From: a virus
Taxonomy: Duplodnaviria; Heunggongvirae; Uroviricota; Caudoviricetes
Direction: 5' to 3' (one strand)
IMG/VR virus record: IMGVR_UViG_2713896902_000001
Length of the DNA stretch: 31,164 nt
Positions 4,896 to 27,985 of this stretch are shown piece after piece. The notes under the pieces are model-generated. The model saw nothing but the letters and a program-made list of their open reading frames with translations, was not told the origin of the DNA and did not search any database. Within the stretch, counting starts at the first letter, position 1. Each line of letters begins with the position of its first letter. The translations under genes and the position numbers were made by a program.

Positions 4896-4896
4896 T

Positions 4897-5232: not shown

Positions 5233-5254
5233 AAAAAGCAACAAAAAAGTTGTA

Positions 5255-5560: not shown

Positions 5561-5564
5561 ATAA

Positions 5565-5777
5565 ATGTTGTTTTTAAACGATAAAGAGCAAATCATCAAG
5601 TATCGAGATGAAATGCTGCGAATTACTCCACAAATTACCGAAATGGTAGCTAAATACGCTGGGTGTTCTGTCGAAGAAGTAGAAAGATGTGTTGAAAAAT
5701 ATTTTTCTCCTTCTTCTCCGTCTACACCTTCCCTTAATGAATTAATCAAATTAAAAGCTAAGGAGATTACTAAATGA
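5565..5777 (+). CDS. hypothetical small protein (70 aa)
   Basis: Track ORF; weak RBS; stop overlaps the start of the next gene. Confidence 0.45.
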   Translation: MLFLNDKEQIIKYRDEMLRITPQITEMVAKYAGCSVEEVERCVEKYFSPSSPSTPSLNELIKLKAKEITK

Positions 5778-6136
5778 TTATTGATTTAGACACTCTGTTT
5801 CCAGTTCGAAAGACTTTCACAGATATTGTAAGTTATTGTACTGATCCGTTTGCCTCTGTAGAAAGCAAGGTTTTTGCTTCTCTTCCTGCTGATGTTGAGT
5901 GCGGAGACTTGATCACCAGCACGGGCGCTAAATATGAATCAGGAGATGATGTCTATGTTGTTATGAGTGAGTTTGTAACGGCTGGAGACAACAAGCCTGT
6001 AGATATTTTACGTAGCAATGCTGGGCTTGTATGCATCAAAGCTGATGCCCTGAATGCTGTAAGTGAAGCAGCAAAAACAGCATTAATTAAAAAAGGCTTC
6101 CAGCTTGAAGGCTTTAATACGGTTTTCACTTCTTAA
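5774..6136 (+). CDS. hypothetical protein (120 aa), possibly a head-decoration-like protein
   Basis: Track ORF; AAGGAG RBS; size, composition and position immediately 5' of the capsid-like gene recall lambda D-type decoration proteins; assignment by context only. Confidence 0.55.
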   Translation: MIIDLDTLFPVRKTFTDIVSYCTDPFASVESKVFASLPADVECGDLITSTGAKYESGDDVYVVMSEFVTAGDNKPVDILRSNAGLVCIKADALNAVSEAAKTALIKKGFQLEGFNTVFTS

Positions 6137-6154
6137 TAAAAGGAATAATAATAA

Positions 6155-7183: not shown

Positions 7184-7196
7184 TATTTAACGTGTA

Positions 7197-7236
7197 ATAG
7201 AGGCGTGGCGTGTATTCACGCTTCGCCTTTTTTTAT
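7197..7236 (+). terminator. Rho-independent terminator after the capsid-like gene
   Basis: gaggcgtggcgtgtattcacgcttcgcc stem followed by tttttttatttatttttt. Confidence 0.6.
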
Positions 7237-7268
7237 TTATTTTTTAAATTTTGAGAGGTGATTAAAAT

Positions 7269-7472
7269 ATGGAAGTGATTCTGAAATCAAAAAATGGTGT
7301 ACACGTACATTTAGATGCTAATGATTCTAGAGGCTTGTTAAATCTGAAATATCTATGTTCTCTCTTAGATGTGCCATATGAAGGAGTAAAAGCCCGTATG
7401 TTCAGATTAAACGAGAGTATTGATCAGGCTCTACACCATTTCTTAAGCAAAGAAGGTGGTAAAAATGATTAA
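7269..7472 (+). CDS. hypothetical small protein (67 aa)
   Basis: Track ORF; GAGAGGTGA RBS. Confidence 0.45.
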   Translation: MEVILKSKNGVHVHLDANDSRGLLNLKYLCSLLDVPYEGVKARMFRLNESIDQALHHFLSKEGGKND

Positions 7473-7486
7473 TAAGGGGATTTTAA

Positions 7487-9331: not shown

Positions 9332-9352
9332 CATTACAAGGAAATTATTATT

Positions 9353-10066
9353 ATGGCGACCGCCGGGATTTTAACCATACGTGCAGCAAATACTCCAGAA
9401 CAACACGTTCAGGCTGTTTACAAAGCAGAACAAGATATAAACTCTACAAAAAACGAAAATAGCAAAGCTAATAAAACAAAAGGAGAGAACGGATTTGCTA
9501 TTGTTACCAGTGGACTGGCATCTTCTGGTAATGATGTTTATGAAAATTATATGGCACTGGCCTTTGATAGTGTTGACGATGTGAACGTGAGACGTTCGGC
9601 AGATGTCACAAGCTACCCCGTAGAAAATGGTGCTACTGTGTCTGATCACGTTCAAATTAAAAACAATAAGTTCTCTCTTAAAGGGCGTATCTCTGAAACA
9701 CCGATTAAAAGCGATCCTGGCTTGTTAAAGAGTGCAGGGGTGAACGGGAACAGAAGATCATTGGCTATTGATTATCTGAATCAGATTATGGACAGTAGAC
9801 AGCCTTTTCTTCTTGTTACAGAAAATAAAACTTTTGAGAACGTTGTTTTAACAGGCATCGAATACACAGAAGAGGCAAGCGAATCCCTGGTATTTGATCT
9901 TAGCTTTGAGCAGATCAGGCTCGTTTCGTATGGCACTGTAAACACTGTAGCTATCAAAACACAGCCATCTAAGAACATCGGGGCTAATATGAAAAAACGT
10001 GTTAACACTGAAAAACCAAGTAGTGAAGGTGAAGACACTATTACTCCTGCCTTTAAACAGGAATAG
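9353..10066 (+). CDS. hypothetical protein (237 aa), possibly structural
   Basis: Track ORF; AAGGA RBS; last gene of the rightward operon. Confidence 0.65.
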   Translation: MATAGILTIRAANTPEQHVQAVYKAEQDINSTKNENSKANKTKGENGFAIVTSGLASSGNDVYENYMALAFDSVDDVNVRRSADVTSYPVENGATVSDHVQIKNNKFSLKGRISETPIKSDPGLLKSAGVNGNRRSLAIDYLNQIMDSRQPFLLVTENKTFENVVLTGIEYTEEASESLVFDLSFEQIRLVSYGTVNTVAIKTQPSKNIGANMKKRVNTEKPSSEGEDTITPAFKQE

Positions 10067-10104
10067 CCGTAAATGCCTCTAAAACGCTCTGTAACGATGT
10101 AATT

Positions 10105-10140
10105 ATAAAAGAGGCTACCAACTATGTTGAATCCTCTTTA
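10105..10140. terminator. hairpin between convergent genes (bidirectional terminator candidate)
   Basis: TAAAAGAGGctaccaactatgttgaatCCTCTTTA between the 9353..10066 gene and the minus-strand integrase. Confidence 0.4.
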
Positions 10141-10146
10141 TTGCGT

Positions 10147-11481
10147 CTATGACGTTGTTTTACGCCTTAAATTTGATTTTTTATTGATTGATAAGCCTTT
10201 CTCTATTTCAGGGTAGCGTAGAAGCTCAATATATTTTTTAAGCTCTACTGGAGAAGCTGCATTCTTGCTATATGTGCGGAATGTTTCTGTATTGCCGCGT
10301 GTATGGCCCAGGAGAAGGGCGATCCTGTCTTCTGGAATTTGATTTCGATCAAGAAGCTGTGCTACTCCGTGTCTCAGAGAATGAAACACTTTCCTTTCTG
10401 TTCCCTTTTCCCCTAAAGCCTTTCGTTTAGCTCTTGTAAATCTCTGCGTGTGCCACGTGGAACGTTTACCATCAGCACGCTCTGTAATGCTGGCGTGATA
10501 GAACAAAAAGCCATTATGAGGCTTTTCACGCAGCGACAACACCAACGGAGTGATAAGGCTATGCACAGGAACAAGACGTGCCGCAGCTTTCGTTTTTCCC
10601 TGTGTGATTTCAAAACACAGCACACCTTCGATCTCTTTCACATCGTCTATTGTGAGACTTGCTATCTCATTGATCCGCATACCTGTATAAGCACCGATAA
10701 GACACAAAGCCATCATTTCTTTGTTTTCTGCTGAATCACCGGAAAATACTTGCAACACCTGCAATAGCTCTTTGTTAGAAAATGCCTCATAGCTCTCTCT
10801 ACTTTGTGCCACATCAAGCCTATGCCCTCGCCAGGGGGAGAGCGCCCTTTCTGGCGCATCGTGGTAACGTGATGAAGCTAACTCCCATAGCTGGGCCATT
10901 GGGCTGATATAATTTGCAATTGATTGTTGTGAAAGGGTTTTTTGCATGTGTTCTATCCAGCCTGTAACAGTGGTGCGGCTTACATCTTGCAATGCAATAT
11001 CAGGCTTTTTACGGTAGGAGAGAAACATCTCTACCGCTTTTCTTGCCTTAGCTAAAGTGGCTGGCTTCTTCTTCGTGCTGTTAATTGTCAGGTAGATTTC
11101 AAGAATTTTAAGCAATGACGGACACGAAGACGCTGTATCTTGCATTCTGGTAGCTGTTTTGGCGTATTTAGCCTTACTGCGTAACAGTTCCAGCGTGTTC
11201 TCTATTGTGCTGTTTACAGGAGCGACACTCTCGCGTAAGCAATGGTATTCATCTGCAATCTGATCACGCTTTCTACGTGCAACACGAAGGTTACTTGTAT
11301 GCAGACTCCTGACAAACGTCCTTTTTCCTTCAAAAAAGGGCTGCATATACACAGGCAGCGTGATCCTTAAATAGTAGTTACCGTAAGAATCACAGATTAT
11401 GTATTGATTGGGCTTGTATCTCATAAACTCCCCGGCTAAAGTGTCGGAGCGTTTGTAATGTGAAAATTGATTGTAACGCAT
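10147..11481 (-). CDS. int: tyrosine recombinase / phage-type integrase (444 aa)
   Basis: C-terminal catalytic signature: R in GMRINEI, HSLRHG (H-x-x-R), LLGH, Y in TFRTYSK; N-terminal arm-binding-like region. Confidence 0.85.
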   Translation of the reverse strand: MRYNQFSHYKRSDTLAGEFMRYKPNQYIICDSYGNYYLRITLPVYMQPFFEGKRTFVRSLHTSNLRVARRKRDQIADEYHCLRESVAPVNSTIENTLELLRSKAKYAKTATRMQDTASSCPSLLKILEIYLTINSTKKKPATLAKARKAVEMFLSYRKKPDIALQDVSRTTVTGWIEHMQKTLSQQSIANYISPMAQLWELASSRYHDAPERALSPWRGHRLDVAQSRESYEAFSNKELLQVLQVFSGDSAENKEMMALCLIGAYTGMRINEIASLTIDDVKEIEGVLCFEITQGKTKAAARLVPVHSLITPLVLSLREKPHNGFLFYHASITERADGKRSTWHTQRFTRAKRKALGEKGTERKVFHSLRHGVAQLLDRNQIPEDRIALLLGHTRGNTETFRTYSKNAASPVELKKYIELLRYPEIEKGLSINKKSNLRRKTTS

Positions 11482-11751
11482 AGAAAATGATAATTTTTTC
11501 TATAAGATTCAATCAATTAGTAATGGTCGTAGGTGATGGCATTAACACGAGATTAATCGAGTGTTTTACTCCTATTATCGGCACCATTCAAACATCTCCC
11601 CAAGTCTACTAAAGTCTTTCAAAACCCCTTATAATCCACGTATTAAAGCCCCGTTCGTCTTTTGACGTCTACTAAAGTCCCTCAAAATCTACGGTCAGAT
11701 GGGGGTACTTATGGGGGTATTTGCTGTTCGGTTTAGTGGAGGTACCCCCAA
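11482..11751. promoter_or_regulatory. shared control region between divergent integrase genes with 20-bp direct repeats
   Basis: GTCTACTAAAGTC(T/C)(T/C)TCAAAA twice (about 11605 and 11660); GGGGGTACttatgggggtatttgctgttcggtttagtggagGTACCCCC inverted repeat just before the int start; partly duplicated near 30794-31035. Confidence 0.4.
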
Positions 11752-12966
11752 GTGAAACTCAATGCCCGTCAAATAGACACAGCCAAGCCAAAAGAGAAGG
11801 CTTACAAGCTGGCCGATGGTGGCGGTTTGTATCTCTTGGTAAAACCTAATGGAGGTAAATACTGGCGACTTAAATATCGTGTAGCTGGTAAAGAGAAGCT
11901 ATTGGCACTAGGTGTGTATCCTGAGGTTACTCTAGCCGATGCTCGGGCAAAACGTGAAGATGCGAAAAGAGGTATCGCTGGTGGTATCGATCCGATGGAA
12001 GCGAAACGAGAGGAAAAGATTGCCCGGGAAACGCAGTTAAACAACACCTTCAAAGATATTGCCCTTGAGTGGCACAGCAGCAAATTAAAAAAATGGTCTG
12101 CTGGTTATGCTTCAGACATCCTCGAAGCCTTCAACAAAGATGTGTTCCCTTACATTGGCAAAAAACCAATCGCCGAAATCAAACCACTTGAACTTCTGAA
12201 TGTGCTGCGGCGCATCGAGGGGCGCGGTGCGACAGAAAAAGCCAAAAAAGTGAGGCAGCGGTGCGGGGAAGTTTTCCGCTATGCAATAGTCACTGGTCGC
12301 GCAGAGTATAACCCTGCACCAGACCTTACTAGCGCGATGCAAGGCCATGAATCTAATCATTACCCTTTCCTTACGACCAAAGAATTACCTGATTTTTTCA
12401 AGGCATTGTCCAGTTACTCAGGAAGCGCATTGGTTGTTATGGCGGCTCGTCTACTGATTATCACCGGCTTGCGAACTGGCGAACTACGTGGCGCATTATG
12501 GGATGAAATTGATTTCAACAAGGCTATATGGGAGATACCCGCTTCACGTATGAAAATGCGGCGGCCTCATATTGTGCCATTGTCTGAGCAGGCTCTTTCG
12601 CTTATTGGGAAGATTAGAGAAATAACAGGCAATTACCCTCTTATGTTTCCCGGGCGCAATGATCCAAGGAAAACAATGAGTGAGGCCAGCATAAACCAAG
12701 TGTTTAAGCGCATTGGCTACGCTGGACGTGTAACTGGTCATGGGTTCCGGCACACTATGAGTACGATTTTGCATGAGCAGGGCTATAACACTGCGTGGAT
12801 AGAAACACAGCTCGCTCACGTTGATAAGAACTCAATTCGTGGCACATACAACCATGCGCAATATCTGGATGGAAGGCGGGAGATGCTTCAATGGTATGCC
12901 GACTATATGGATGCGCTGGAGAAGGAGGAGAACGTTGTTCATGGTTCGTTTGGGAAACGAGCTTGA
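11752..12966 (+). CDS. int: P4-type tyrosine integrase (404 aa)
   Basis: GTG start with GGAGGT RBS; N-terminal arm-binding domain motif GGGLYLLVKPNGGKYWRLKYR; C-terminal catalytic residues (GLRTGEL, HGFRHT, Y in RGTYNH). Confidence 0.9.
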   Translation: MKLNARQIDTAKPKEKAYKLADGGGLYLLVKPNGGKYWRLKYRVAGKEKLLALGVYPEVTLADARAKREDAKRGIAGGIDPMEAKREEKIARETQLNNTFKDIALEWHSSKLKKWSAGYASDILEAFNKDVFPYIGKKPIAEIKPLELLNVLRRIEGRGATEKAKKVRQRCGEVFRYAIVTGRAEYNPAPDLTSAMQGHESNHYPFLTTKELPDFFKALSSYSGSALVVMAARLLIITGLRTGELRGALWDEIDFNKAIWEIPASRMKMRRPHIVPLSEQALSLIGKIREITGNYPLMFPGRNDPRKTMSEASINQVFKRIGYAGRVTGHGFRHTMSTILHEQGYNTAWIETQLAHVDKNSIRGTYNHAQYLDGRREMLQWYADYMDALEKEENVVHGSFGKRA

Positions 12967-13100
12967 CTGTATGAATAGACAGTGTCAAGCAATGGTAGTA
13001 GACTTATGTAGACGAACAAAGAATAGGCTATGTCTAGGCTGATCCCCGAAAACCCGTACACCCCTACGGGCTGGCATAGCCGTCAGAATTAGGGGCGCGG
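12967..13100. other. nested hairpin structures downstream of int (terminator or structured RNA/att-like element)
   Basis: GCTTGACtgtatgaatagacagtGTCAAGC, then GGCTATG...CCCGTAcacccctACGGG...CATAGCC nested stems. Confidence 0.3.
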
Positions 13101-14187: not shown

Positions 14188-14385
14188 ATGTCTCAATCAT
14201 TTATTCGTCTTTCTGAGGTTCAACGCCGTACTGGTTACAGCAAAGCGTGGATTTATCGGCTCATCAAAGAACAGCGATTCCCTCAATCTGTAAAGATTGG
14301 AAGCCGATCAATTGCGTTTATTGAAAGTGAAATTGAAGAATGGATTAATCAGCGCATCGCTGAGTCGCGTGGCGAGGTAGCGTAA
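14188..14385 (+). CDS. alpA: AlpA/Vis-family phage transcriptional regulator (65 aa)
   Basis: HTH pattern LSEVQRRTGYSKAWIYRLIKEQRFP...IESEIEEWINQR typical of AlpA-family proteins; position after int as in P4-like and PICI-like islands. Confidence 0.85.
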   Translation: MSQSFIRLSEVQRRTGYSKAWIYRLIKEQRFPQSVKIGSRSIAFIESEIEEWINQRIAESRGEVA

Positions 14386-15662: not shown

Positions 15663-15837
15663 GCCGACAGGAACACCACAACCTCAAAAACGCTACAAAG
15701 ATGCCCACGGAGCACTCGTTACTGTCGAAAGCGTGTCTCACAACCGAGTGACGTTTTATCGCGACGGGTATCAATCGCCATGCGTACAACCGCTGGCGCG
15801 CTTCATGAAGGAGTTCGCGGAGGTTAACAAATGCTAA
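15655..15837 (+). CDS. hypothetical small protein (60 aa)
   Basis: ATG 15655 with GGAGG RBS overlapping the upstream stop; internal start of track ORF 15568..15837. Confidence 0.4.
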   Translation: MFKPTGTPQPQKRYKDAHGALVTVESVSHNRVTFYRDGYQSPCVQPLARFMKEFAEVNKC

Positions 15838-16898
15838 CCGTCCAGAAGAAGATATTTTCACTGGCTGGTATGTCACCAAAATCCAGCAATATGACAGCAA
15901 AGTCTGGCATTAATACAGCAGATACAAGCAAAGTTTATCATTTTCTGGTGGTAGGAGCGGATGCCTTAACTATGTCAGAAATTACGGTCGATGGTGTTAG
16001 CGTTGAGAAGGTCAGCGGCTGCGCCAGAGAATTTCTGGTCGTAGATGGCTTTCTCTGCTCGCGTAGTGACTCCACAAAAACCTTCGTCCATACGCGCGAC
16101 GTTAACGAAATGAGCGCGATGTATTGTGCATCTGGTGCTTCCAATAGTGAGTTTTCGGAGTCCATAAAAAAGAGCTTGCCGTTATGCGGCAACACGGTTT
16201 ATGGTTATAAGGCACCTCATAAAACGGGTGCCGGGATTGGCGTCCTGAAAATTCTGAAGGCGACATATGACGCGCCGAGCGTCTTTTTTTATGTCGTAGG
16301 TCTGACTCACCCATTTTTTGGGCGTTGGTGTATAATCCAGCGCCTTTGTCAATCAATGGTGGCTCAGGCGGGGGCTTCTTCGGAAGCGCCGGTATCCTTC
16401 AGAGCCGGTTACGCCAACCCTGTCTGGGCTACCACCAGCGAAATTGGCGTTTCCGGTGGTAGCGTAACCTGCTATCTGAAGGAGGCTGCCACATGCTGGC
16501 TACTACCCCTACCCAAAAACCGCAATTTATCTGGATTATCGCCGCAGTTCGCCGCGATTGCCCGACAATTACCGCCAAAATTCATCATATTGCTGCCGAG
16601 TCTGAACGCGATGCTCGCCGTTCTCTGGTGCGCGATCACGTCTGCTTTTTTGCTGGTCGTATCCGCATGGAGGTGGCACATGATTAAAACCTACGATGTG
16701 CATATGGATCCCCTCGAACGCACAAGCCAGATCATCACACTGACAGAAGTGATTAATGACATTCTGGTGAGCAACTCTCCCTCACGAGACGAAAAACTGA
16801 AGGCGTTACTCGCGATATTGGATCTCGCCGTTCGTGACGTTCATTTCCTGCTGGAAGGTGGCGAAATGCCAGGAAAAACGGGGGCAACCAATGAATAA
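15831..16898 (+). CDS. long ORF of uncertain authenticity (355 aa); the 3' part probably corresponds to separate small genes
   Basis: No stop in this frame, but a well-supported 64-aa gene (16493..16687) is embedded in another frame and a strong internal RBS/ATG sits at 16680; composition looks atypical (Cys/Trp-rich). Confidence 0.3.
16493..16687 (+). CDS. hypothetical small protein (64 aa)
   Basis: Track ORF; AAGGAGG RBS 8 nt upstream of ATG. Confidence 0.4.
   Translation: MLATTPTQKPQFIWIIAAVRRDCPTITAKIHHIAAESERDARRSLVRDHVCFFAGRIRMEVAHD
16680..16898 (+). CDS. hypothetical small protein (72 aa)
   Basis: GGAGG RBS then ATG 16680 overlapping the stop of 16493..16687; same frame as the long ORF. 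Confidence 0.4.
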   Translation: MIKTYDVHMDPLERTSQIITLTEVINDILVSNSPSRDEKLKALLAILDLAVRDVHFLLEGGEMPGKTGATNE

Positions 16899-18510: not shown

Positions 18511-18874
18511 AAATGCAGAAATGGCGCTTAGCTCCGCAATCGGAGAGCTGGTGGCAAAGATTGCTGGTGCTGTGTGGATTCATAACCTTCATTCTACTGG
18601 TGAAGAGAAAATGGCAATTCAGACGCCAGAGGGACGCACCATTACTACATCTCTGAAGCCGTCAGATGTTTGTGATCTGATTTGCGCATTCATGTACCCA
18701 GCAATGAGGACTGTCCACGGCGATAAGTGGAAACTTGCGACAACCGCTGAATTTGATATGTGGCTAAACAATGATGGCATGCTGACTGATTACGGAATAA
18801 CCAAGTGGCAGATGCTGGTTAGCCATATCGCAAACGCTATAGACCACGTGGGGTACGGTGATGCGAAACATTGA
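18503..18874 (+). CDS. hypothetical protein (123 aa)
   Basis: Track ORF; overlaps neighbours at both ends. Confidence 0.6.
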   Translation: MRENAEMALSSAIGELVAKIAGAVWIHNLHSTGEEKMAIQTPEGRTITTSLKPSDVCDLICAFMYPAMRTVHGDKWKLATTAEFDMWLNNDGMLTDYGITKWQMLVSHIANAIDHVGYGDAKH

Positions 18875-21617
18875 TCTTATCCGTCAGGTTATCAGTGCGT
18901 CTGAAAACAACTGGCCTCATGTGCTGGGCTGCCTGAACATAAATGTCCCTGACTCTCCGCGCCGTCATGCTCCCTGCCCTGCATGTGGGGGCAAAGATCG
19001 ATTCCGGTTCGATGACAACGGGCGCGGTAGCTTCATCTGTAATCAGTGCGGCGCTGGTGATGGGCTGGATTTAATTAAACGCGTAAATAACTGCGACACA
19101 ACAGAGGCGGCGCTTCTTGCCGCTGATGTTCTGGGTATTGATTACCGGACAACGGAAACACCAGAAGCCACCAGCCAGAAACGGGAACAACTGGAAACCG
19201 AGCGCCAGCGACGCGAACAGGAGCGCCTGAAAAGGGCAGAGAAGGACGAACAACAAAGACGGGATACGTTTTCCCGTCAGTTTGATGACATGCGCAGAAA
19301 GGCTGTAAACGGCAAATCTGATTATCTGGTTGCGAAAGGGGTAGGTGATTTTACATTCCCCGTGTTGCCTGATGGATCTCTGTTGCTGGCGCTGGTGGAT
19401 AAATCCGGCGCAGTCACAGCAGCACAGACTATTACCTCACATGGTGAAAAAAGACTCCTGACAGGTTCAGCAAAGCGGGGGGCATATCACGCCATAAACG
19501 CACCAGAAACAACACAGAGCATCTTAATCGCAGAAGGGCTGGCAACGGCATTATCTGCCCATTTAATTCGTCCAGAGGCGCTGACAGTGGCGGCGATTGA
19601 TGCCGGGAACCTGTTATATGTCGCCCAGGTACTGCGGGATAAATTTCCTTCAGCACAAATCATCATTGCTGCGGATAACGACCACAGCGAAGGAAGACAA
19701 AACACGGGGAGAATAGCAGCAGAAAAAGCAGCTTTATCTGTTTCTGGATGGGTGGCATTACCCCCGACAGGTCACAAAGCAGACTGGAATGATTACCACC
19801 AAAAACACGGCATTAAATGCGCCACAGAAGCGTTCAATAAGTCAATGTACCAACCACAGGGTAATGGCGTGAAACAGGAGCCACAGACCATTGAGGGAAG
19901 CGATTTTAAGGTTATGGATACCGACCCACTGAAACCAAGAATAGAAAGCCGCGAGGATGGTATTTATTGGGTATCTCCGAGAGCTGACAGCCAGAGTGGA
20001 GAAATCATCAATAACGAAAGCTGGTTATGTTCTCCGTTAAGCGTTATCGGTACTGGCAGAGACGATAAAGACCAGTATCTCATTCTTCGCTGGCTGTCGT
20101 TTGGTTCTGAAACGCCGACAACCGCTGCCATTCCACTGGCTGATATTGGTGAACGTGAAGGATGGCGCACACTTAAAGCTGGTGGGGTAAATGTCACGAC
20201 CAAAAGCAGCCTCAGAGCAATACTGGCAGACTGGCTACAACGCAGTGGCTCTCGTGAATTGTGGCGTGTTGCTCATGCCACTGGCTGGCAATGCGGAGCG
20301 TACATCATGCCTGATGGGGAAATCATCGGAACACCTGAAAATCCTGTGCTGTTCAGCGGGAGAAGCTCAGCCGCAGCCGGATATACCGTCTCAGGGAGCG
20401 CGAAAAGCTGGCGTGATAACGTGGCGCGTCTGGCCTTTGGTAACTATTCAATGATGACCGGGATCGGCGCAGCACTGGCAGCGCCATTGATTGGGCTGGT
20501 GGGCGCTGACGGGTTCGGCATTCATTTCTATGAGCAGTCGAGCGCAGGTAAGACCACCACGGCAAACGTGGCGAGCAGCTTATACGGCAACCCTGATTTA
20601 CTGCGGCTGACGTGGTATGGAACCGCGCTGGGGCTGGCAAATGAGGCCGCCGCCCACAATGACGGACTAATGCCGCTTGATGAAGTTGGTCAGGGCGCTG
20701 ATCCTGTCAGCGTTTCACAGTCTGCCTATGCGTTATTTAACGGTGTAGGGAAACTGCAAGGCGCTAAAGATGGTGGAAACCGGGATCTAAAACGCTGGCG
20801 TACAGTGGCAATCAGCACCGGAGAAATGGATTTAGAAACATTTATCGCTACTTCCGGGCGAAAAACCAAAGCCGGGCAACTGGTGCGACTGCTGAATATT
20901 CCGTTGAGTAAAGCAGTACGCTTTCACGATTACCAGAACGGAAAACAGCACGCAGACGCACTGAAAGACGCTTACCAGCATCACCACGGCGCAGCCGGGC
21001 GTGAGTGGATTAAATGGCTGGCAGACCACCAGCAACAGGCAATTAAAACTGTTCGTGACTGCGAAAGCAGATGGAGAAGTCTGATCCCATCCGATTATGG
21101 TGAGCAGGTTCACCGTGTAGCCGCGCGATTTGCCATTCTGGAGGCCGCATTGCTGTTAGGCGAGGTTGTAACAGGCTGGGATGCTCAGACATGCCGTGAT
21201 GCGATACAGCACAGCTATAACGCATGGTTGCGCGAGTTCGGCACAGGTAACAAAGAACATCAGCAGATTATTGAACAAACGGAGGCATTTCTTAATGCCT
21301 ATGGGCTTAGCCGTTTTGCACCATTTCCATACAGCCCGGCAGATTTGCCCATCAAAGATTTAGCCGGATACCGTCAGCGTGGAGAACATGACGAAAGCCC
21401 AATGATTTTCTACACATTCCCGGCCACATTTGAAAAGGAGATCGCATGTGGTTTCAACGCAAAACAGTTTGCTGAAGTGTTGAAAAAAGCCGGGATGCTA
21501 ACCCCACCAAACAGTGGTCGTGGATACCAAAGAAAATCACCACGTATTCAGGGACGACAAATAAACGTTTATGTACTCAATTACCAGCCAGGAGATTACA
21601 ACTCATCTGAAGAATGA
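18861..21617 (+). CDS. primase-helicase, P4 alpha-like (zinc-ribbon + TOPRIM primase, C-terminal NTPase)
   Basis: Zinc ribbon CPACGGKDRFRFDD...CNQCG; TOPRIM acidic motif IIAADNDHSEGRQ; Walker A-like SSAGKTT and Walker B-like LMPLDEVG; followed directly by the iteron cluster. Confidence 0.9.
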   Translation: MRNIDLIRQVISASENNWPHVLGCLNINVPDSPRRHAPCPACGGKDRFRFDDNGRGSFICNQCGAGDGLDLIKRVNNCDTTEAALLAADVLGIDYRTTETPEATSQKREQLETERQRREQERLKRAEKDEQQRRDTFSRQFDDMRRKAVNGKSDYLVAKGVGDFTFPVLPDGSLLLALVDKSGAVTAAQTITSHGEKRLLTGSAKRGAYHAINAPETTQSILIAEGLATALSAHLIRPEALTVAAIDAGNLLYVAQVLRDKFPSAQIIIAADNDHSEGRQNTGRIAAEKAALSVSGWVALPPTGHKADWNDYHQKHGIKCATEAFNKSMYQPQGNGVKQEPQTIEGSDFKVMDTDPLKPRIESREDGIYWVSPRADSQSGEIINNESWLCSPLSVIGTGRDDKDQYLILRWLSFGSETPTTAAIPLADIGEREGWRTLKAGGVNVTTKSSLRAILADWLQRSGSRELWRVAHATGWQCGAYIMPDGEIIGTPENPVLFSGRSSAAAGYTVSGSAKSWRDNVARLAFGNYSMMTGIGAALAAPLIGLVGADGFGIHFYEQSSAGKTTTANVASSLYGNPDLLRLTWYGTALGLANEAAAHNDGLMPLDEVGQGADPVSVSQSAYALFNGVGKLQGAKDGGNRDLKRWRTVAISTGEMDLETFIATSGRKTKAGQLVRLLNIPLSKAVRFHDYQNGKQHADALKDAYQHHHGAAGREWIKWLADHQQQAIKTVRDCESRWRSLIPSDYGEQVHRVAARFAILEAALLLGEVVTGWDAQTCRDAIQHSYNAWLREFGTGNKEHQQIIEQTEAFLNAYGLSRFAPFPYSPADLPIKDLAGYRQRGEHDESPMIFYTFPATFEKEIACGFNAKQFAEVLKKAGMLTPPNSGRGYQRKSPRIQGRQINVYVLNYQPGDYNSSEE

Positions 21618-21641
21618 GCTACTTCATGTGCGTAGAAAAGG

Positions 21642-21753
21642 TGTTGGTTCAGTTGGTTCAGTTGGTTCAATTTGTAAAGAGCGTTGTTTTATAAGGATTT
21701 TATTCTTTTTGTTGAACCAACACTGAACCAACAACACGGCATTTTGAACCAAC
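21642..21753. repeat. ori-like iteron cluster: 3 tandem GTTGGTTCA, AT-rich spacer, 3 inverted copies (TGAACCAAC)
   Basis: ggtgttggttcagttggttcagttggttcaatttgtaaagagcgttgttttataaggattttattctttttgttgaaccaacactgaaccaacaacacggcattttgaaccaacac immediately 3' of the primase gene. Confidence 0.6.
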
Positions 21754-21850
21754 ACAATGTGACTGAATTGATGTGCACAACACCTGGCTGGCATTAGAGA
21801 GTGTTTTACGAAATCTGAACACCACATCAACTGGTTTCAGTGGGAGATTG

Positions 21851-22309
21851 ATGATGAAGATAATCGCAAAGGCTTTTCATCATGTATTTGGCAAAGTATC
21901 CGATTTGCCATCTGTAATACCGATGAACAACAGAAGGGAGACGCTGCTTGATGTGGTTGTGTTCCCATACATAGACCTTTCTGAACCAATGAAAGCAACT
22001 CTTTTCAGAAAGTATCTTGGCGACTTTAAACGCCGTTTTACAGGCGTTAACGGGATGGTTGATATCTGCGCCATCAGAGATATTGTTGAACTTGCAGGGA
22101 TTAATTTGTGGGGAGAAGCGGCAGCAGCATACAAATGGCTTGAACGCCTGCACTGTGTTTCATTCAGTGACATGAGTGCTGATATCGCTTTAATGGTTCC
22201 TCACAAAATCAATATGGTCTTTGCTGGTGGCAATTACACTTATCCATGGAACAAGGAACAAAGAGAGAACAGGAAAGCTCACGCCATGAAGAGTAATGCG
22301 ACTCCATAA
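21851..22309 (+). CDS. hypothetical protein (152 aa)
   Basis: Track ORF 21773..22309; start placed at ATG 21851 with GGGAGA RBS, since the track start lies inside the iterons. Confidence 0.5.
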   Translation: MMKIIAKAFHHVFGKVSDLPSVIPMNNRRETLLDVVVFPYIDLSEPMKATLFRKYLGDFKRRFTGVNGMVDICAIRDIVELAGINLWGEAAAAYKWLERLHCVSFSDMSADIALMVPHKINMVFAGGNYTYPWNKEQRENRKAHAMKSNATP

Positions 22310-22363
22310 ATATAGTTTTTAGAGTCCATAAAAAACTGTCAAAACTTGACATACAGAACGATG

Positions 22364-22395
22364 CCACCAGCTACTGAGCGGTGGCATTTTCTTGT
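22364..22395 (+). terminator. Rho-independent terminator candidate
   Basis: GCCACCagctactgagcGGTGGC followed by attttcttg; a TTGACA -35-like element sits just upstream at about 22346. Confidence 0.45.
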
Positions 22396-22488
22396 GCTAT
22401 TCGTTTCACATTTTGCAATGAACATGATGAATGTTGCGTTTTATGAAACTATAATAACTGTTGTTTTATACAGTTCTAAGGGGGCGTT

Positions 22489-22650
22489 ATGGCTATTTCA
22501 GTAAAGCCGGTATTGATAAGTGAGAAGCAAATGGAAGCGATAAAGAAAATTCAGGAAGAGCAGCGTAAAAAATCAGGAATTGGAGTAGCGCCAACTCTGC
22601 ATGAAATTGCACGAGGGTTAATAGATAAGGCGCTGGCAGGCTGTATGTGA
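22489..22650 (+). CDS. hypothetical small protein (53 aa), possibly RHH-like
   Basis: AAGGGGG RBS then ATG 22489; MAISVKPVLISEKQMEAIKKIQEEQRKKSGIGVAPTLHEIARGLIDKALAGCM; below track cutoff. Confidence 0.35.
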   Translation: MAISVKPVLISEKQMEAIKKIQEEQRKKSGIGVAPTLHEIARGLIDKALAGCM

Positions 22651-22666
22651 AAATGGATGGCACCGC

Positions 22667-23128
22667 ATGGAACTAAAATTTATTGATAACCCGGTGCGAT
22701 TACAGGCCTTTCTTAACGAGCCTGCCAATACCGAAAATATTGTTGAGCCGGGGCACACGTACTACATCAAGCCTGATGCGGTATATCTCGGCATCTACGA
22801 AGGATTGGTGCTGGCTGGCGTTCATGAAGTGCGTAACTTCTGGCATAGCATTGTTGAATGTCATGCGGTGTACGACCCCGGATTCCGTGGTGAATATGCA
22901 CTGCAAGGGCATCGATTATTCTGCAAATGGCTTCTCGAAAACTCACCATTCCTTAACAGCATCACTATGGTTCCTGACACCACGAAATACGGACGGTCAA
23001 TTATCCGTTTGCTTGGCGCTACCCGTGTTGGTCACCTGGCCGATGCATATATCAGATGTGGTAAACCCGTCGGCGTAACGCTTTATCAGTTAACTCGGCA
23101 ACAATATAAGGAACTCAGCGAATGTTAA
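22667..23128 (+). CDS. hypothetical protein (153 aa)
   Basis: Track ORF; stop overlaps the next gene start. Confidence 0.6.
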   Translation: MELKFIDNPVRLQAFLNEPANTENIVEPGHTYYIKPDAVYLGIYEGLVLAGVHEVRNFWHSIVECHAVYDPGFRGEYALQGHRLFCKWLLENSPFLNSITMVPDTTKYGRSIIRLLGATRVGHLADAYIRCGKPVGVTLYQLTRQQYKELSEC

Positions 23129-23799
23129 TTACCCATATAGCTCATAAACATCTCAATCGTGCCGTATACGAAAAAGGCGGTGATGGTGGTGCCTCTAAAG
23201 CTCAGGCGAAGGCCCAGCAGCAGGCAATTGATTTGCAGCGCGAGCAGTGGAATACGGTGATGAATAATCTCAAGCCGTATGCAGAAGTCGGATTGCCTGC
23301 TTTACAACAACTACAAGGGCTGATGACTCTGGAAGGGCAGAATAAAGCCGCGAATGATTTCTTTGGTTCTGGTTTATATAAAACACAGGCAGATCAGGCC
23401 CGTTATCAGAACCTTGTCTCAGCAGAAGCTACCGGGGGGCTTGGCTCAACAGCTACCAGTAACCAGTTATCTTCCATTGCGCCCATGCTTTATAACAATT
23501 GGCTTAGTGGGCAAATGCAAAATTATGGAAACCTGCTAAATGTCGGGATGAATGCGGCATCAGGGCAGGCAACGGCTGGGCAAAACTACGCCAATAATAC
23601 CGGACAACTCTTGCAGGGGCTTGGCGCTATTCGTGCAGGTCAGGCGCAGCAGCCATCCAGTCTTGCGCGTGGTATTGGTGGGGCAGCATCAGGCGCTTTA
23701 GCGGGTGCGCAACTTGGTTCCGTTGTTCCTGGAATAGGTACTGCGGCCGGCGCTATTGGTGGTGGGATTATTGGTCTTGTTGGGGGGCTTGGATTCTAA
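23122..23799 (+). CDS. Gly/Ala/Gln-rich protein with C-terminal glycine-zipper hydrophobic tail (225 aa); ejection/internal-virion-protein-like
   Basis: C-terminus GIGGAASGALAGAQLGSVVPGIGTAAGAIGGGIIGLVGGLGF; first of three translationally coupled genes. Confidence 0.6.
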   Translation: MLITHIAHKHLNRAVYEKGGDGGASKAQAKAQQQAIDLQREQWNTVMNNLKPYAEVGLPALQQLQGLMTLEGQNKAANDFFGSGLYKTQADQARYQNLVSAEATGGLGSTATSNQLSSIAPMLYNNWLSGQMQNYGNLLNVGMNAASGQATAGQNYANNTGQLLQGLGAIRAGQAQQPSSLARGIGGAASGALAGAQLGSVVPGIGTAAGAIGGGIIGLVGGLGF

Positions 23800-25118
23800 T
23801 GGCGACATGGCAACTTGGCGGGCTGCCTAGCATGGCACCGCAAAATGATAATGCTCCTCGTTCTTCCGTTCCTCAGCCCGTGCAGTATCAGCAGCAGCCA
23901 AACGTAGGTTTAATGGCGCTACAGGGGCTAAGAGGCGTTGCTGAGATTAATCAGCAGGCGCAAATTTCCCAGCAGCTAAAAGAATATCAGGCACGGTTGG
24001 GTAGTGCGGTAGCTAATAATGATCGTGTTAGCGTGCAGAAGTTAATGGCCCAGTATCCCCAGTTTATGGCTGATTCCCAAAAACAGATGGGATTCATTGA
24101 TGCTGAGCAAAATCGACAGACCGCTGACGCTGCCATGAATCTGCGTCTTGCGTCACAAACTGGAGATCCACTGACCATGCAGAAGGCCATTCAGCAGGCA
24201 AATCCAGTATTACAGCGATTTGGTCTTCCTGCTGAAGAGGTTTATCAGTCTTGGCAGAATGACCCACAGGAATTCAACAGAATCACTGACCTCATCCACC
24301 TCCATGCTGATCCAAATAGTTACTTTAGTGTTCAAGAGAAGCAGCAAGGGCAGAGCATTGCACAGCAGAACGCAGATACATCTGCATATAATGCTCAGGT
24401 TAATGCGGAACAGGGTAATCGGCGTCTCGATATGGAGCAGTTCAAAGTCCTATCCGATAACCAACTACGCACGAGAGAAATGGTTCTGAAAGCACGACTT
24501 GGACGTGCTCAAAATGACATCGAGAGAGACAAGCTCAATGCTGAACTGAGCAAGGTACAGCAGGCGAAAGTGGAGAAGATGAACGATAAAATTAATACTG
24601 TTGCAGGTAACATCGACTCCTTGAACTCTGCGCTTGAAGTGGGTCATGAACTGGCGGGAATTGTAGGGAAACATCCTTCGGCCGTTACCCGCTCGCAGAA
24701 CTATAACCCCCTGACGCTGGGGTTTGGATTCCTTCCTGATGTAGCAGAAGACACACGAAGCCTACGCGCCAAAGCTGATGAATACAACCTAAAGGTTATT
24801 CTGCCTAGCCTCAAAGGGACTTTTGGCTCTAACCCAACCGAAGGGGAAAGGGCTGCCCTTATGCAATCTCAAAATGGCATTAAGTCAGCAACCAGCAATG
24901 AGGCATTTTTACGAGAGTTGAATAAAGCGCAGGACGTAATTATTCGAATGCAGAAACGACAGATTGCCGGGCTCGGTATTCCTGTAACCAAATCTAAGGA
25001 CGAAGAAACTGATACCAAAATGCTGTTGCAGGATCCTTCACTGGTTAAGGATTATGTGACCGCACATGGCTATCTGCCGGAAAGTTACTATCAGGCAAAA
25101 CTTAAGGGATGGCAATGA
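23799..25118 (+). CDS. Gln-rich coiled-coil protein (439 aa); ejection/internal-virion-protein-like
   Basis: Track ORF; start overlaps the upstream stop; low-complexity Q/A-rich heptad-like segments. Confidence 0.65.
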   Translation: MATWQLGGLPSMAPQNDNAPRSSVPQPVQYQQQPNVGLMALQGLRGVAEINQQAQISQQLKEYQARLGSAVANNDRVSVQKLMAQYPQFMADSQKQMGFIDAEQNRQTADAAMNLRLASQTGDPLTMQKAIQQANPVLQRFGLPAEEVYQSWQNDPQEFNRITDLIHLHADPNSYFSVQEKQQGQSIAQQNADTSAYNAQVNAEQGNRRLDMEQFKVLSDNQLRTREMVLKARLGRAQNDIERDKLNAELSKVQQAKVEKMNDKINTVAGNIDSLNSALEVGHELAGIVGKHPSAVTRSQNYNPLTLGFGFLPDVAEDTRSLRAKADEYNLKVILPSLKGTFGSNPTEGERAALMQSQNGIKSATSNEAFLRELNKAQDVIIRMQKRQIAGLGIPVTKSKDEETDTKMLLQDPSLVKDYVTAHGYLPESYYQAKLKGWQ

Positions 25119-27835
25119 TGGCACAACTGACAGAAAAACAGAAAGCCTATTCCCGTCATCTCGATGAAAAATATGGTTTCCCATCAGGGACGATGGAAAC
25201 ATTAGTTGGCAATGAATCTAGTGGTAACGGAAGTGCCGAGTCACCGAAAGGAGCTAGAGGATTTGCTCAACTGATGCCCTCAGTAATGAGTGATGCTGGT
25301 TATCGTGGAACTGATCCGCGCTCACTGCCATTTGAAAAGCAAATGGATATCGCAGCAAACCATCTCAATAAAGGAATGAAGCGATTTGGTGATATAGGTA
25401 TGGCATTGGCTGGGTATAATTCTGGCTATGCTCGTATTAATGCCGTCAGAAACGGTAAATCTACACTGCCAGATGAAACGGCTAATTACGTAAGTAAATT
25501 TGCAGATGCCGGAATAATCCCTGATGACAGTGAAATCTTGCAGTTTGCACAAACCAGTCAACATCGCAATCTTCAGCAGCCTGACTACTCAGAGCTTGAT
25601 AAAGAAATCTCTCAGGTGGGAGATATTTCTGCATGGGAAGCAAAACGTCAGCAATTTAAGAACATAGAAGCAGGACTACCAACAGCCAGTTCATGGGAGC
25701 AGAAAAGAGCTCAGTTTCTCGCCGATGAAAATGCCGGGGAACCGCAGCAGCAAGTAGCCAAGTCTAACCTTAATCCTGAGATGGAATATCTTTCGCCAGG
25801 ACTGAAAGCTGCGCCAGAGCAGATGGCCAGAGGGATTGCTAATATACCGTTTGATGTAATGGACGCAGGCGTGGGGGTAGTCAATGCGGCGCAATCAGCC
25901 GGAGCATGGGCAGCTCAGAAGCTTGGTGTGGGTGATGGCACATACACGCCCATATCACCTGTCTTTCGCCCAGTAGACCAACCTACAGATCCATACGCGC
26001 AGGCTGGTGAGCAGCTAGCACCTTACCTTATTACAGGATTAGGTGCAGGAAAGGCAGCTACCGCAGCTTCTTCAGTTGCCAACGCTCCACGTGCTGAACG
26101 TGCGGCCACAAAGGTGGCTAGTATGTTGGCAGAAAACCTGCCAGGTACATTGGTGAACGCCCAAAAGAACGGGCAGATCAGCCCAGAAGACCTAGCAAAA
26201 GAGACAGGTATTGGCCTAGCAGGATCGCTAGGAGCACGCGCTTTAATAAAGAGCGGACAGACAGCCAGTGACGTAATGCGAGATGTATTGCGGAGTAATA
26301 CAAATCAATCAGGCCATGTGTTAGGGGCAGCAAATACTCTGGAAACCGCCAATGATGTATCGAAAGCAGCGCGTTCTGCCGTAGGCCGAGAGCATATCGC
26401 ATCGCAGGCATCAAACGTCAGAGATGATGTCGCTAAGGCGGCGAAAATCACTGGTATTAATATCAACACCCTGACGCCTGGAATGCGCTCAGGTAGTCGT
26501 GGAATTGCCCAAGCAGAAGGTGTTCTGGCATCAACTCCTGGGAATGTTCAGGATGCTCACCTTACGGCCTTCAATGAAATATCCTCAAAGTTGAATAAGC
26601 AGTTGTCTGATTTCGGTGCTGAGTCTGGAAGCGCATCAGAAAAAAGCGCAGCAATTAAAGAGCGCATCATCGCGAGCCTCAGTGATATGAAAACAGCAGA
26701 GAATATGGCATGGGCAGAACTGCGAAGCACGATGCCACGCGAAAGGATGAAAATGAGTAATGGGATGGCTGTCGTCCAAGCAGAAAAAGCAGCCAATGTT
26801 CCACTCAGCCCGGAGATGAAACAGTTTCAGGCTGCCAACAACCAAGGTGGCGGCATAACCTTCGACGGGATGAAGGCATGGCGTGCTAAGTTTGCTGATG
26901 CTGAACAAGCAAACACCCGGGCAGGTAAGGCCAATGCCGCCCGGATTGCCGGAGAAATGCGCAGAGCTATCACTGATGACATGCGCATCATGGCTGAAAA
27001 AGGAAACTTCCTCACAGAATGGCAGAAAGCTAACGATCTCTCTAAAAGTTACATTATCGCCAAACAAAATGCCGAATCTGTTTTTGGTCGAGATCTCGCA
27101 TCAGACGCTATGGTAAGAAAAGGTGTCGATACGCTTAAGGCATCCGCAAACACTGGAACGGGAGCTTTTCACCGCCTTATCTCCGCGCTGCCGGAAGCAG
27201 AACGCCAACCAGCAATAGCATCTATTCTTCAGCATGCTGTGGCGCAGGGAGAGAAGGGAGGAATCGGTGAAGAGTCTGGTATCCAGTATTTTGCCAAGCT
27301 CATGACCCAGCAGAATGTAAACGCCATCAGTCGTCATGCGCCAGATCTCGGTAGAATGATGAAAGAGTTCGGTGTACTCGCTAAAGCCAGCACCAGACCG
27401 CAGCGATACGTAGAACGCACGGGAAGAACAACTGAGGCTCTCAAAACGCTCGATTCAGGCCTTCCAAAGATCGTCGGTGTGATTATGAACGGAGTTCAAC
27501 AGTCAGGTGCGATCGCTGGAGGCTTTGGCGGTGGTGTAATTGGTTCGATTAGTGGTTTGGTTGCTGGTGGCGCACTGAGAAATACTGTGGCTAAGATTGG
27601 GGCGACAAGAAGTGGTCGATATGCGATAGAGAAAGCCGTTCAGGAAGCTACAAAAGCAGTGCGCGCAGGGGCATCACCAGCAGCGATCGCCGCAGCAGAG
27701 AAACGATTTTCGGCCAATAAAATTGCCATGAAAGCAATTCGTGATGCCGTTGGGGCTGAAGAATTCGTGAAACTGACAAGGGCCGGGATTGTAGCTACCC
27801 TCAGTGGCATGAAAGATGTTAGCGAATGGGAATAG
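25109..27835 (+). CDS. large protein with N-terminal lytic transglycosylase (SLT) domain and Ala/Gly-rich C-terminal region (908 aa); ejection/internal-virion-protein-like or tape-measure-like
   Basis: SLT-type motifs near the N-terminus (NESSGNGSAESPKGARGFAQLMPS ... ALAGYNSGYARIN); glycine-rich hydrophobic segment GVQQSGAIAGGFGGGVIGSISGLVAGGAL near the C-terminus. Confidence 0.8.
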   Translation: MAMMAQLTEKQKAYSRHLDEKYGFPSGTMETLVGNESSGNGSAESPKGARGFAQLMPSVMSDAGYRGTDPRSLPFEKQMDIAANHLNKGMKRFGDIGMALAGYNSGYARINAVRNGKSTLPDETANYVSKFADAGIIPDDSEILQFAQTSQHRNLQQPDYSELDKEISQVGDISAWEAKRQQFKNIEAGLPTASSWEQKRAQFLADENAGEPQQQVAKSNLNPEMEYLSPGLKAAPEQMARGIANIPFDVMDAGVGVVNAAQSAGAWAAQKLGVGDGTYTPISPVFRPVDQPTDPYAQAGEQLAPYLITGLGAGKAATAASSVANAPRAERAATKVASMLAENLPGTLVNAQKNGQISPEDLAKETGIGLAGSLGARALIKSGQTASDVMRDVLRSNTNQSGHVLGAANTLETANDVSKAARSAVGREHIASQASNVRDDVAKAAKITGININTLTPGMRSGSRGIAQAEGVLASTPGNVQDAHLTAFNEISSKLNKQLSDFGAESGSASEKSAAIKERIIASLSDMKTAENMAWAELRSTMPRERMKMSNGMAVVQAEKAANVPLSPEMKQFQAANNQGGGITFDGMKAWRAKFADAEQANTRAGKANAARIAGEMRRAITDDMRIMAEKGNFLTEWQKANDLSKSYIIAKQNAESVFGRDLASDAMVRKGVDTLKASANTGTGAFHRLISALPEAERQPAIASILQHAVAQGEKGGIGEESGIQYFAKLMTQQNVNAISRHAPDLGRMMKEFGVLAKASTRPQRYVERTGRTTEALKTLDSGLPKIVGVIMNGVQQSGAIAGGFGGGVIGSISGLVAGGALRNTVAKIGATRSGRYAIEKAVQEATKAVRAGASPAAIAAAEKRFSANKIAMKAIRDAVGAEEFVKLTRAGIVATLSGMKDVSEWE

Positions 27836-27985
27836 ACGCTCTAACTAACAAAACCATAATAGCCAAGGACGGCATACTGATATTGAGCCAACTATCAAAA
27901 TTCCATATCACATTACGAGCCTGTGGCTTACATTCGCTTACAGTGATGATAATTTATAACCACGCAATTCTTAGGTGAGATTATC

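Follow-up and report, generated by a model that had tools for sequence, protein, structure and literature searches.

A probable two-part replication origin, with 9-bp iterons likely read by the Pri-Rep tail, in an EcCIMP1-like phage-inducible chromosomal island

The stretch of DNA analysed here (hereafter the window: 31,164 nt, IMG/VR virus record IMGVR_UViG_2713896902_000001, listed under Caudoviricetes) carries, from approximately 11.6 to 30.9 kb, an integrated satellite, namely an EcCIMP1-like phage-inducible chromosomal island (PICI). The pri-rep gene of this island encodes a fusion of primase, helicase and initiator (Pri-Rep), and two modules of 9-bp iterons lie downstream of it, the first directly after the gene and the second beyond a block of cargo genes. 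These modules, and the part of the protein that probably reads them, are the subject of this report. The coordinates of the features are collected in Table 1.

Table 1. Features of the island in the window, with their positions, strand and the basis on which they were assigned (aa, amino acids; ORF, open reading frame).
Feature	Position	Strand	Basis or remarks
P4-type integrase	11752-12966		
AlpA-like gene	14188-14385		Assigned by eye and from synteny with the NGF1 annotation
pri-rep gene (primase-helicase-initiator fusion)	18858-21617	+	919 aa from GTG 18858, 918 aa from ATG 18861
Zinc ribbon, CxxC...CxxC, aa 35-70	18960-19067	+	Pfam PF08273 Zn_Ribbon_Prim, E=2.8e-15; alignable with P4 alpha
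TOPRIM primase catalytic domain, aa 222-319 (E226, DND 273-275)	19521-19814	+	Pfam PF13362 Toprim_3, E=1.7e-14
DUF927 helicase domain, aa 366-644	19953-20789	+	Pfam PF06048, E=3.5e-47, 278 of 284 profile positions
C-terminal tail, aa ~855-910, putative iteron-recognition domain	21420-21587	+	Co-variation with iteron class
Candidate specificity stretch RKSPRI, aa 892-897	21531-21548	+	Fixed differences between classes A and B
Module 1 tandem iterons, 3 x GTTGGTTCA head-to-tail, 9-bp pitch	21643-21669	+	Starts 21643, 21652, 21661
Module 1 spacer, putative DNA-unwinding element	21670-21712		43 bp, 77% A+T (window 56%)
Module 1 inverted iterons, 3 x GTTGGTTCA, spacing 11 and 21 bp	21713-21753	-	Starts 21713, 21724, 21745
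CCTGGCTGGCA motif	21783-21793	+	Directly before the start of the cargo
Cargo between the modules, with unknown ORFs	21794-30091	+	8.3 kb; Pfam and synteny
P22 gp14 homologue	22667-23128		Pfam DUF2824
P22 gp7 homologue	23122-23799		Pfam P22_gp7
P22 gp20 homologue	23799-25118		Pfam Inj_translocase
SLT/gp16-like protein	25109-27835		Pfam SLT
Conserved minus-strand ORF adjoining module 2	29534-29989	-	Synteny
Module 2 iterons, 3 x GTTGGTTCA, 21-bp pitch	30092-30142	+	Starts 30092, 30113, 30134
Module 2 spacer	30143-30185		43 bp, 77% A+T
Module 2 tandem iterons, 3 head-to-tail	30186-30212	-	Starts 30186, 30195, 30204; then conserved TTTTTGCTTATCTATATA
PerC-family gene, first past module 2	30249-30536	+	Pfam PF06069, E=2.6e-33

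The ATG at 18861 is the start of the database protein P0001 (918 aa, 100% identity), and the GTG at 18858 is a possible start. Over its full length, Pri-Rep matches the PHROGs family phrog_1139, 'DNA primase' (E=3.7e-178). An earlier description of the locus, made from the letters of the DNA without database searches (hereafter the sequence-only reading), had recognised a zinc-ribbon/TOPRIM/NTPase primase-helicase, which is borne out by the Pfam domains and by motifs that are invariant in 25 homologues: C40, C43, C61 and C64; E226 and D273-N274-D275; G564-K565-T566; and D608-E609. The last two groups fall within the Walker A sequence SSAGKTT (aa 561-567) and the Walker B DE (aa 608-609) of the DUF927 part. 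The same reading had also called the protein P4-alpha-like, and this label applies to the primase third alone. Using BLASTP, residues 8-340 of Pri-Rep align with P4 alpha at 33% identity over 359 aa (E=2e-41), which covers the zinc-ribbon/TOPRIM part, but no BLASTP similarity to P4 alpha was found past residue ~340, where the helicase is of the DUF927 and not the D5 type. P4 alpha contains Zn_Ribbon_Prim and Toprim_3 followed by D5_N, DUF5906 and Pox_D5; none of the latter three Pfam families matches the helicase half of Pri-Rep, for which DUF927 is the sole Pfam helicase match. The only sequence relatives among structures in the PDB are 8tch_A, a 'Pathogenicity island protein' (E=1e-11, aa 403-814), and 5dgk_A, an 'Active helicase' (E=0.007). 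Cch belongs to the DUF927 family, which is related to the Rep helicase of the Staphylococcus aureus pathogenicity island (SaPI) SaPIbov1 (PMC7581432), and Rep2, a homologue of SaPIbov1 Rep, has been placed in the MCM-like superfamily 6 (SF6) group (PMC9371898). Since only the N-terminal part aligns with P4 alpha and the helicase half is a DUF927 protein related to SaPI Rep and Cch, Pri-Rep is, judged from its sequence, a chimaeric protein that combines a P4-type primase with a SaPI-type (Rep/Cch) initiator helicase. Its proper family is that of the Pri-Rep proteins of Gram-negative PICIs.

Twelve exact copies of the iteron GTTGGTTCA are present in the window, compared to 0.24 +/- 0.45 in shuffled sequences, none of which reached 12. 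The first of them begins 25 nt past the pri-rep stop codon. Module 1 has the composition and the exact positions that the sequence-only reading had given it, that is, three direct and three inverted iterons about an AT-rich spacer directly after the gene, and the spacer includes the sequence TTTATAAGGATTTTATT, which is kept across iteron classes. Module 2 (30092-30212) lies 8.4 kb downstream in mirror orientation to module 1. The tandem-proximal 21 nt of its spacer are the exact reverse complement of the corresponding part of the module 1 spacer, and a perfect inverted repeat of 55 nt (21636-21690 / 30165-30219) is shared between the two. This second module had been missed, and the earlier view of module 1 as a compact and self-contained replicon does not hold, because module 1 has an inverted counterpart with which it forms a pair. 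As a single strand, module 1 folds far more stably than shuffled sequences do (z=-6), a result without weight because it follows trivially from the inverted iterons. Rfam searches of the window and of positions 21600-22700 returned nothing within or between the modules apart from a chance match of a miRNA model to the iteron palindrome, and scans for sigma-70 promoters and intrinsic terminators around both modules found none. The CCTGGCTGGCA motif was also inspected by eye for sigma-54 and sigma-70 features, which were rejected since no consensus match was present.

To place this arrangement among its relatives, 77 related loci were retrieved, of which 59 are evaluable orthologues (58 with a module, together with the locus L058). 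The orthologous proteins are 51-81% identical and come from Enterobacter, Klebsiella, Pantoea, Erwinia, Serratia, Pectobacterium, Yersinia and other Enterobacterales. A survey of iterons beside orthologous primases had been proposed with the sequence-only reading, and its outcome agrees with that reading: in 58 of the 59 loci, an iteron module of the same geometry begins 22-45 nt past the primase stop codon. Two modules were found in 42 of these 58 loci, either contiguous (30 loci; ~280 bp, within a range of ~250-330 bp, with 8-12 repeats) or split by 0.4-9 kb (12 loci); these numbers, and that of the single-module loci given below, depend on the clustering thresholds and on flanks of 10 kb. 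In the contiguous form, the first half consists of three tandem repeats, an AT-rich spacer of ~45 bp and three inverted repeats at 11- and 21-bp spacing. This is followed by a middle part of ~30 bp with the conserved sequence CCTGGCTGGCAG, and then by a second half, in which two or three repeats at 21-bp pitch precede the second spacer, and three tandem repeats on the other strand, with a conserved TTTTGCTTATATATA-like sequence after them, close the array. The cargo of the window starts directly past CCTGGCTGGCA, which corresponds to the centre of the module pair in the contiguous relatives, and the anatomy of module 2 is alike in every split locus examined. Both modules of a locus always belong to the same iteron class, including those of the split class-G locus L063 and of the helicase-swapped island described below. 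As a separate observation, CCTGGCTGGCA(G) is found between the origin halves regardless of iteron class (L004, L008, L022, L024, L036, L046 and L047), and it also occurs after the unrelated iterons of the swapped-helicase locus L082, ~135-145 nt past the stop codon. Three iteron arrays of the same class are present in L034 (Yersinia pekkanenii), at about -5700, -1100 and +64 nt from the primase stop codon; the primase match is unusually long in this locus, which may contain tandem or rearranged islands.

The iterons differ between orthologues, and the differences follow the C-terminal end of the protein. At least seven iteron classes exist inside this one orthologous family; GTTGGTTCA (class A) is the commonest, GTTGTCTC is the class-B iteron, and other iteron sequences are TGTTGTCTC, ACGGGTTA, GTCGGTTC(A), GTCGGGTA, GTGGGTTA, TGGGATAAGT and GGTCGGTT. 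The suggestion in the sequence-only reading that the iteron marks a distinct specificity group was hence right but understated. In an alignment of 46 orthologues, the ratio of the identity between classes to that within classes is ~1.0 over aa 1-800 and 0.65 over aa 881-918. Class A (29 sequences) and class B (5 sequences) are separated by six fixed differences, five of which are contiguous and replace RKSPRI at 892-897 by GRV-RE, and the remainder of the protein carries no class signal (identity ratio 1.00-1.02). A blind prediction was made for the O157:H7 island, a capsid-encoding PICI whose DUF927 protein has a class-C-like tail: 7 of 8 bases were right, as the 11 downstream repeats GCGGGTTA are one base off the class-C iteron ACGGGTTA.

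A natural exchange bears on the same question. In Escherichia coli M160133 (L082, NZ_CP022164.1, 4504-8112), the island agrees with that of the window at 98% identity over the 1.8 kb that precede the primase gene and has the same cargo, but the protein past aa ~340 is a DUF5906 helicase instead of DUF927. The repeats of the M160133 island are CCTRTACCA, arranged in a proximal array (6886-6988, directly past the stop codon) and a distal array (8008-8112, 1.1 kb downstream), and neither GTTGGTTCA nor TGTTCACC, the type I iteron of P4, was found in this island. Other E. coli islands likewise have the same primase N-terminus (88% nucleotide identity) joined to a DUF5906 helicase, and domain shuffling at residue ~340 can thus be seen inside this one species. 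Because helicase and repeats change together in M160133, the repeats track the helicase/C-terminal half of Pri-Rep and not the remaining island, and M160133 and the window island represent a natural specificity-swap pair. Together with the class comparison, we infer that iteron specificity sits in the last ~60 residues (aa ~860-919) and chiefly in 892-897.

On the sequence evidence, the region is probably the replication module of an EcCIMP1-like PICI, in which 9-bp iterons are read by the Pri-Rep tail and make up a two-part origin. The parts of this reading are held with different strength: it is very probable that the iterons are the Pri-Rep origin, and participation of module 2 in replication is somewhat favoured. 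In the proposed course of events, a P22-like helper phage would induce the island, resulting in its excision and in Pri-Rep expression. The last ~60 residues of the protein would then recognise GTTGGTTCA, with RKSPRI as the main specificity determinant, and Pri-Rep on the flanking tandem and inverted iterons would melt the AT-rich spacer between them. The DUF927 helicase, which is of the SaPI Rep/Cch type, would load itself onto the opened DNA, and the TOPRIM domain, in the N-terminal part homologous to P4 alpha, would make primers for the host polymerase. Module 2 would act as a second binding cluster for Pri-Rep, either as a second half-origin or as a distant auxiliary cis site like P4 crr. 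The anatomy of the sequence, the homologies of the domains, the conserved position of the modules, the co-variation of iteron and tail and the natural exchange are observed directly; binding, melting, helicase loading and any requirement for module 2 are the parts that we infer.

Several features of this scheme have counterparts in characterised systems. According to PMC6092414, the origin of Gram-negative PICIs lies directly 3' of pri-rep and has an AT-rich region with one iteron set on each side, and the rep-ori segment of EcCICFT073 drives plasmid replication while a rep mutant does not. Module 1 of the window corresponds to this description, with iterons 25 nt past the stop codon and three plus three of them about a 43-bp spacer of 77% A+T. 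With the Gram-negative PICIs EcCICFT073, EcCIEDL933 and EcCIMP1, the window shares the integrase, AlpA, a rightward operon, pri-rep, an origin 3' of it, and PerC. The O157 island resembles the window in its homologous DUF927 protein, its homologous C-terminal tail and its double module of 11 iterons, and the contiguous double form may already be drawn in PMC6092414. The difference lies in the origin halves of the window, which are 8.4 kb apart and mirrored, with virion ejection genes between them.

The SaPI Rep proteins are self-loading helicases with a C-terminal winged-helix domain that reads 6-12 iterons located after rep (PMC9371898, PMC7581432). In the SaPI/PICI model (PMC9371898, PMC7581432, PMC6092414), oppositely oriented iterons about an AT-rich centre allow ATP-independent melting and the loading of two self-loading hexamers. 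Similar to SaPIbov1 Rep, Rep2 and the Cch proteins of the staphylococcal cassette chromosome SCCmec, the window protein is a DUF927 P-loop helicase with its probable origin right after its gene; co-variation suggests that its iteron specificity may lie near the C-terminus, as in SaPI Rep (PMC9371898, PMC7581432). In contrast to these systems, the helicase of the window shares one polypeptide with a primase of the DnaG/TOPRIM type; SaPIbov1 and SaPI5 instead have primases of the archaeo-eukaryotic primase (AEP) family (PMC7581432). Additionally, the iterons are 9 bp long compared to 5-6 bp, and the host is Gram-negative.

A bolder version of the two-part reading, which we regard as doubtful, is that the origin is obligately bipartite. 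Here, mirror-image modules would be read by a reprogrammable stretch at 892-897, the centre would repeatedly gain kilobases of cargo (typically the DNA-injection genes of the helper), and the halves would cooperate by looping like P4 ori and crr. If this were true, the origin would double as a hotspot for cargo insertion, and its specificity could be switched by editing six residues.

Several observations weigh against the reading preferred here. Only one module was found inside the available flank in 16 of the 58 loci, and L058 (Serratia sp. NPDC078593; 51% identity, class-D-like tail) lacks iteron clusters over the first 1.5 kb downstream, so that neither module 2 nor even module 1 is strictly obligatory. 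AT-rich in the window and in several lineages, the second spacer is GC-rich in approximately half of the contiguous forms (68% G+C in L004); therefore, module 2 is not universally a melting site. The co-variation of tail and iteron rests on few independent changes, as the iteron classes are few and their members related. Structural modelling lends no help: the full-length AlphaFold model, generated with 25 homologues, is unusable (mean predicted local distance difference test score, pLDDT, of 41), the C-terminal 130 aa modelled alone with 10 sequences reach a pLDDT of 39, and a profile of the C-terminal tail searched against PDB sequences gave a chance-level match alone (3vu0, E=0.49). A helix-helix-hairpin (winged-helix-like) fold of the tail is hence a low-confidence hint. 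Finally, the next rightward gene always comes shortly past the tandem iterons of module 2, which have the conserved TTTTGCTTATATATA-like sequence behind them, and such a position of module 2 would also suit an element controlling transcription.

This last point leads to the alternative that survives best, unlikely as we judge it, in which module 1 alone is the origin and module 2 is an operator or promoter through which Pri-Rep would control PerC, and perhaps the divergent minus-strand ORF as well, so that these genes are expressed in step with replication. The GC-rich second spacers mentioned above fit this alternative, since such a spacer is a poor unwinding element, and so does the conserved minus-strand ORF that adjoins module 2 in split loci. 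On the other side, no sigma-70-like promoter was found at either module, and since the promoter scans came out empty, they neither support nor exclude a promoter role of module 2. The gene past module 2 varies, and in L013, L018, L021 and L026 PerC follows module 1 instead. In addition, module 2 of the window retains a spacer of 77% A+T and every element of the iteron grammar seen in module 1, which goes beyond what an operator needs.

Less probable still is that the inverted pair arose as a by-product of recombination, with origin copies serving as portable homology for the swapping or inversion of cargo and the second copy playing no role in replication. In its favour, both modules have the 55-nt perfect inverted repeat in common, and the cargo varies widely, from 0.4 to 9 kb and from P22 ejection, tape-measure, SLT and Beta proteins to small ORFs. 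The double module is, however, intact in 30 cargo-free loci across seven iteron classes, which argues for selection on the pair itself. The orientation of the cargo relative to the primase gene is constant in all split loci with mapped cargo and thus gives no sign of inversion, and the iteron spacing of modules 1 and 2 differs outside the 55 nt, so the modules are not simple recent duplicates.

It is very improbable that the island carries a true P4-family replicon, in which an alpha orthologue would act on ori/crr-type sites with a new specificity, even though several features are shared with P4. Both systems have the homologous zinc-ribbon/TOPRIM primase (33% identity over the N-terminal 340 aa), an iteron cluster directly 3' of the gene and a second cluster kilobases away, as well as a P4-type integrase and C4-type immunity RNA (isrK and C4 in the island). 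The iteron grammar is also alike: based on the GenBank annotation of P4 and our own reading of its sequence, a crr unit comprises three spaced iterons, an AT-rich spacer of ~35 bp and two tandem iterons at 9-bp pitch, and crr lies directly 3' of alpha with ori 4.5 kb off. Nevertheless, the helicase and origin-binding two-thirds of Pri-Rep are unrelated to alpha by sequence and belong to different families (DUF927 versus D5_N/DUF5906/Pox_D5). The iteron is GTTGGTTCA and not the P4 type I sequence TGTTCACC, a difference that the sequence-only reading had noted, recalling the P4 repeat correctly. In P4, ori and crr lie on opposite sides of the alpha gene, and crr is a direct duplication, whereas the modules of the window are both downstream of the gene and mutually inverted. 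Moreover, psu, sid and delta have no match among the window proteins scanned, and the helper of the characterised relative EcCIMP1 is a P22-like podovirus, not P2. The weakest alternative, that the repeats are bound by another island protein (e.g. as a partition or packaging site) and are neighbours of pri-rep by chance, is scarcely credible: repeats of such a kind do occur in centromere-like sites as well, but in the islands a different helicase/C-terminal half of Pri-Rep comes with different repeats on a backbone that is otherwise 98% identical, and the identity of PerC to the window protein is independent of iteron class (45-52% in class A, 48-57% in class B).

The assignment of the element to the EcCIMP1 type relies on its distribution and gene content. 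At least 51 complete E. coli genomes, including NGF1 and NC101, contain at least 80% (82-87%) of the 19.7-kb stretch at ~98% identity, and the primase gene with its module is present over at least 80% in 396 of 5426 complete E. coli genomes. The NGF1 island has both modules, 8.4 kb apart, with 12 exact iterons altogether. A 12-kb circular record of the same island type contains both modules only 1.8 kb apart and has no match to the ejection genes. The published gene list of EcCIMP1 comprises an integrase, AlpA, an antirepressor, Ash, a DNA primase, 'DNA transfer' genes and PerC (PMC11773190); upstream of pri-rep, the window island likewise has AntA, an 'Ash' ORF and several small ORFs. The P22-like phage Kapi1 serves as the helper of EcCIMP1 in E. 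coli MP1, inducing and transducing the island, and the PerC homologue of EcCIMP1 silences LEE1 (PMC11773190). By its ~98% identity to the NGF1 island, the window element would be expected to undergo helper-phage induction and transfer in a comparable manner.

Two other identities were rejected for the region. In a phage collection, the P22-like phages Kapi1 and Louie match the window solely at the ejection-gene cargo, which speaks against a phage replication module. The second candidate, a P22-like prophage with a replaced replication module, was rejected as the island contains no capsid, portal, terminase or tailspike genes, and also because of the match to a published PICI and the 12-kb circular version without an ejection-gene match.

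The replicon is thus in itself ordinary, being the pri-rep/ori of a Gram-negative PICI on an island type that is already published. What is added here is limited but concrete: a second, inverted module separated from the first by cargo, cognate classes of iteron and tail, and a candidate six-residue specificity determinant. For the EcCIMP1 island, no description of an origin was found in the searchable literature, and the EcCIMP1 paper is without iterons or an origin (PMC11773190). The present assignment provides a probable origin for EcCIMP1-type islands, which are present in hundreds of complete E. coli genomes. The predicted cognate iteron/tail pairs, at least seven in number, are useful for questions of incompatibility and cross-activation among co-resident islands. 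Predicted properties include the six-residue specificity determinant and origin halves that are separable by up to 9 kb, and if module 2 proves necessary, the island would offer a tractable system for action at a distance in the firing of origins by self-loading helicases.

With regard to the cargo, the satellite encodes its own P22-type ejection proteins (22667-27835). In the EcCIMP1 paper, the ejection genes are remarked upon only as possible packaging genes (PMC11773190). Relatives with virion-type cargo at the same place (L032, L055, L018, L060, L021 and L035) have tape-measure, SLT or baseplate-hub-like proteins, the cargo of other split loci further includes a protein of the P4 Beta family, and in one Leclercia locus the gp14-gp7-gp20-gp16 set of the window recurs with 82-88% amino-acid identity. 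Two copies of a 22-nt direct repeat, AGTTTTnnGAGTCCATAAAAAA, which are 91% identical, lie just upstream of isrK (16150-16171) and upstream of the gp14 operon (22314-22335). This repeat is also present in L082 and may represent a shared regulatory site; its second copy in the window has no Rfam match. Short direct repeats, ACTGTATAAC/ACTGTTATAC in the window, lie at 29995-30035 before the minus-strand ORF 29534-29989, and the relatives L018, L026 and L060 have repeats GTAAGACAGTGTAAGACA upstream of module 2; the repeats of the window and of the relatives look operator-like.

Rfam models score above their gathering thresholds at three places upstream of pri-rep: int-alpA RNA (13027-13094), isrK (16212-16289) and C4 antisense RNA (16352-16439). 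These matches suggest an RNA immunity region of the P4/P1 type upstream of the primase operon. The isrK and C4 matches fall inside the 'Ash' ORF (355 aa, 15831-16898), which is possibly over-called.

The island is bracketed by a 53-nt direct repeat of 77% identity (11581-11633 and 30889-30941) that includes copies of GTCTACTAAAGTC; positions 11604, 11667 and 30912 belong to the same observation. The repeat probably corresponds to attachment (att) or arm-type integrase sites. No tRNA gene is present in the window; the NGF1 copy of the island sits at a tRNA-Thr gene. To the left of the island, in tandem with it, a separate integrative element occupies positions 1-11500. It encodes a resolvase (609-1148, minus strand), a helix-turn-helix (HTH) protein (3484-4065), a homologue of major capsid protein E (6155-7183), a 614-aa ORF, a Dit-like tail protein (9353-10066) and its own integrase (10147-11481, minus strand), and it contains inverted repeats at 2800-2841 and 10070-10111.

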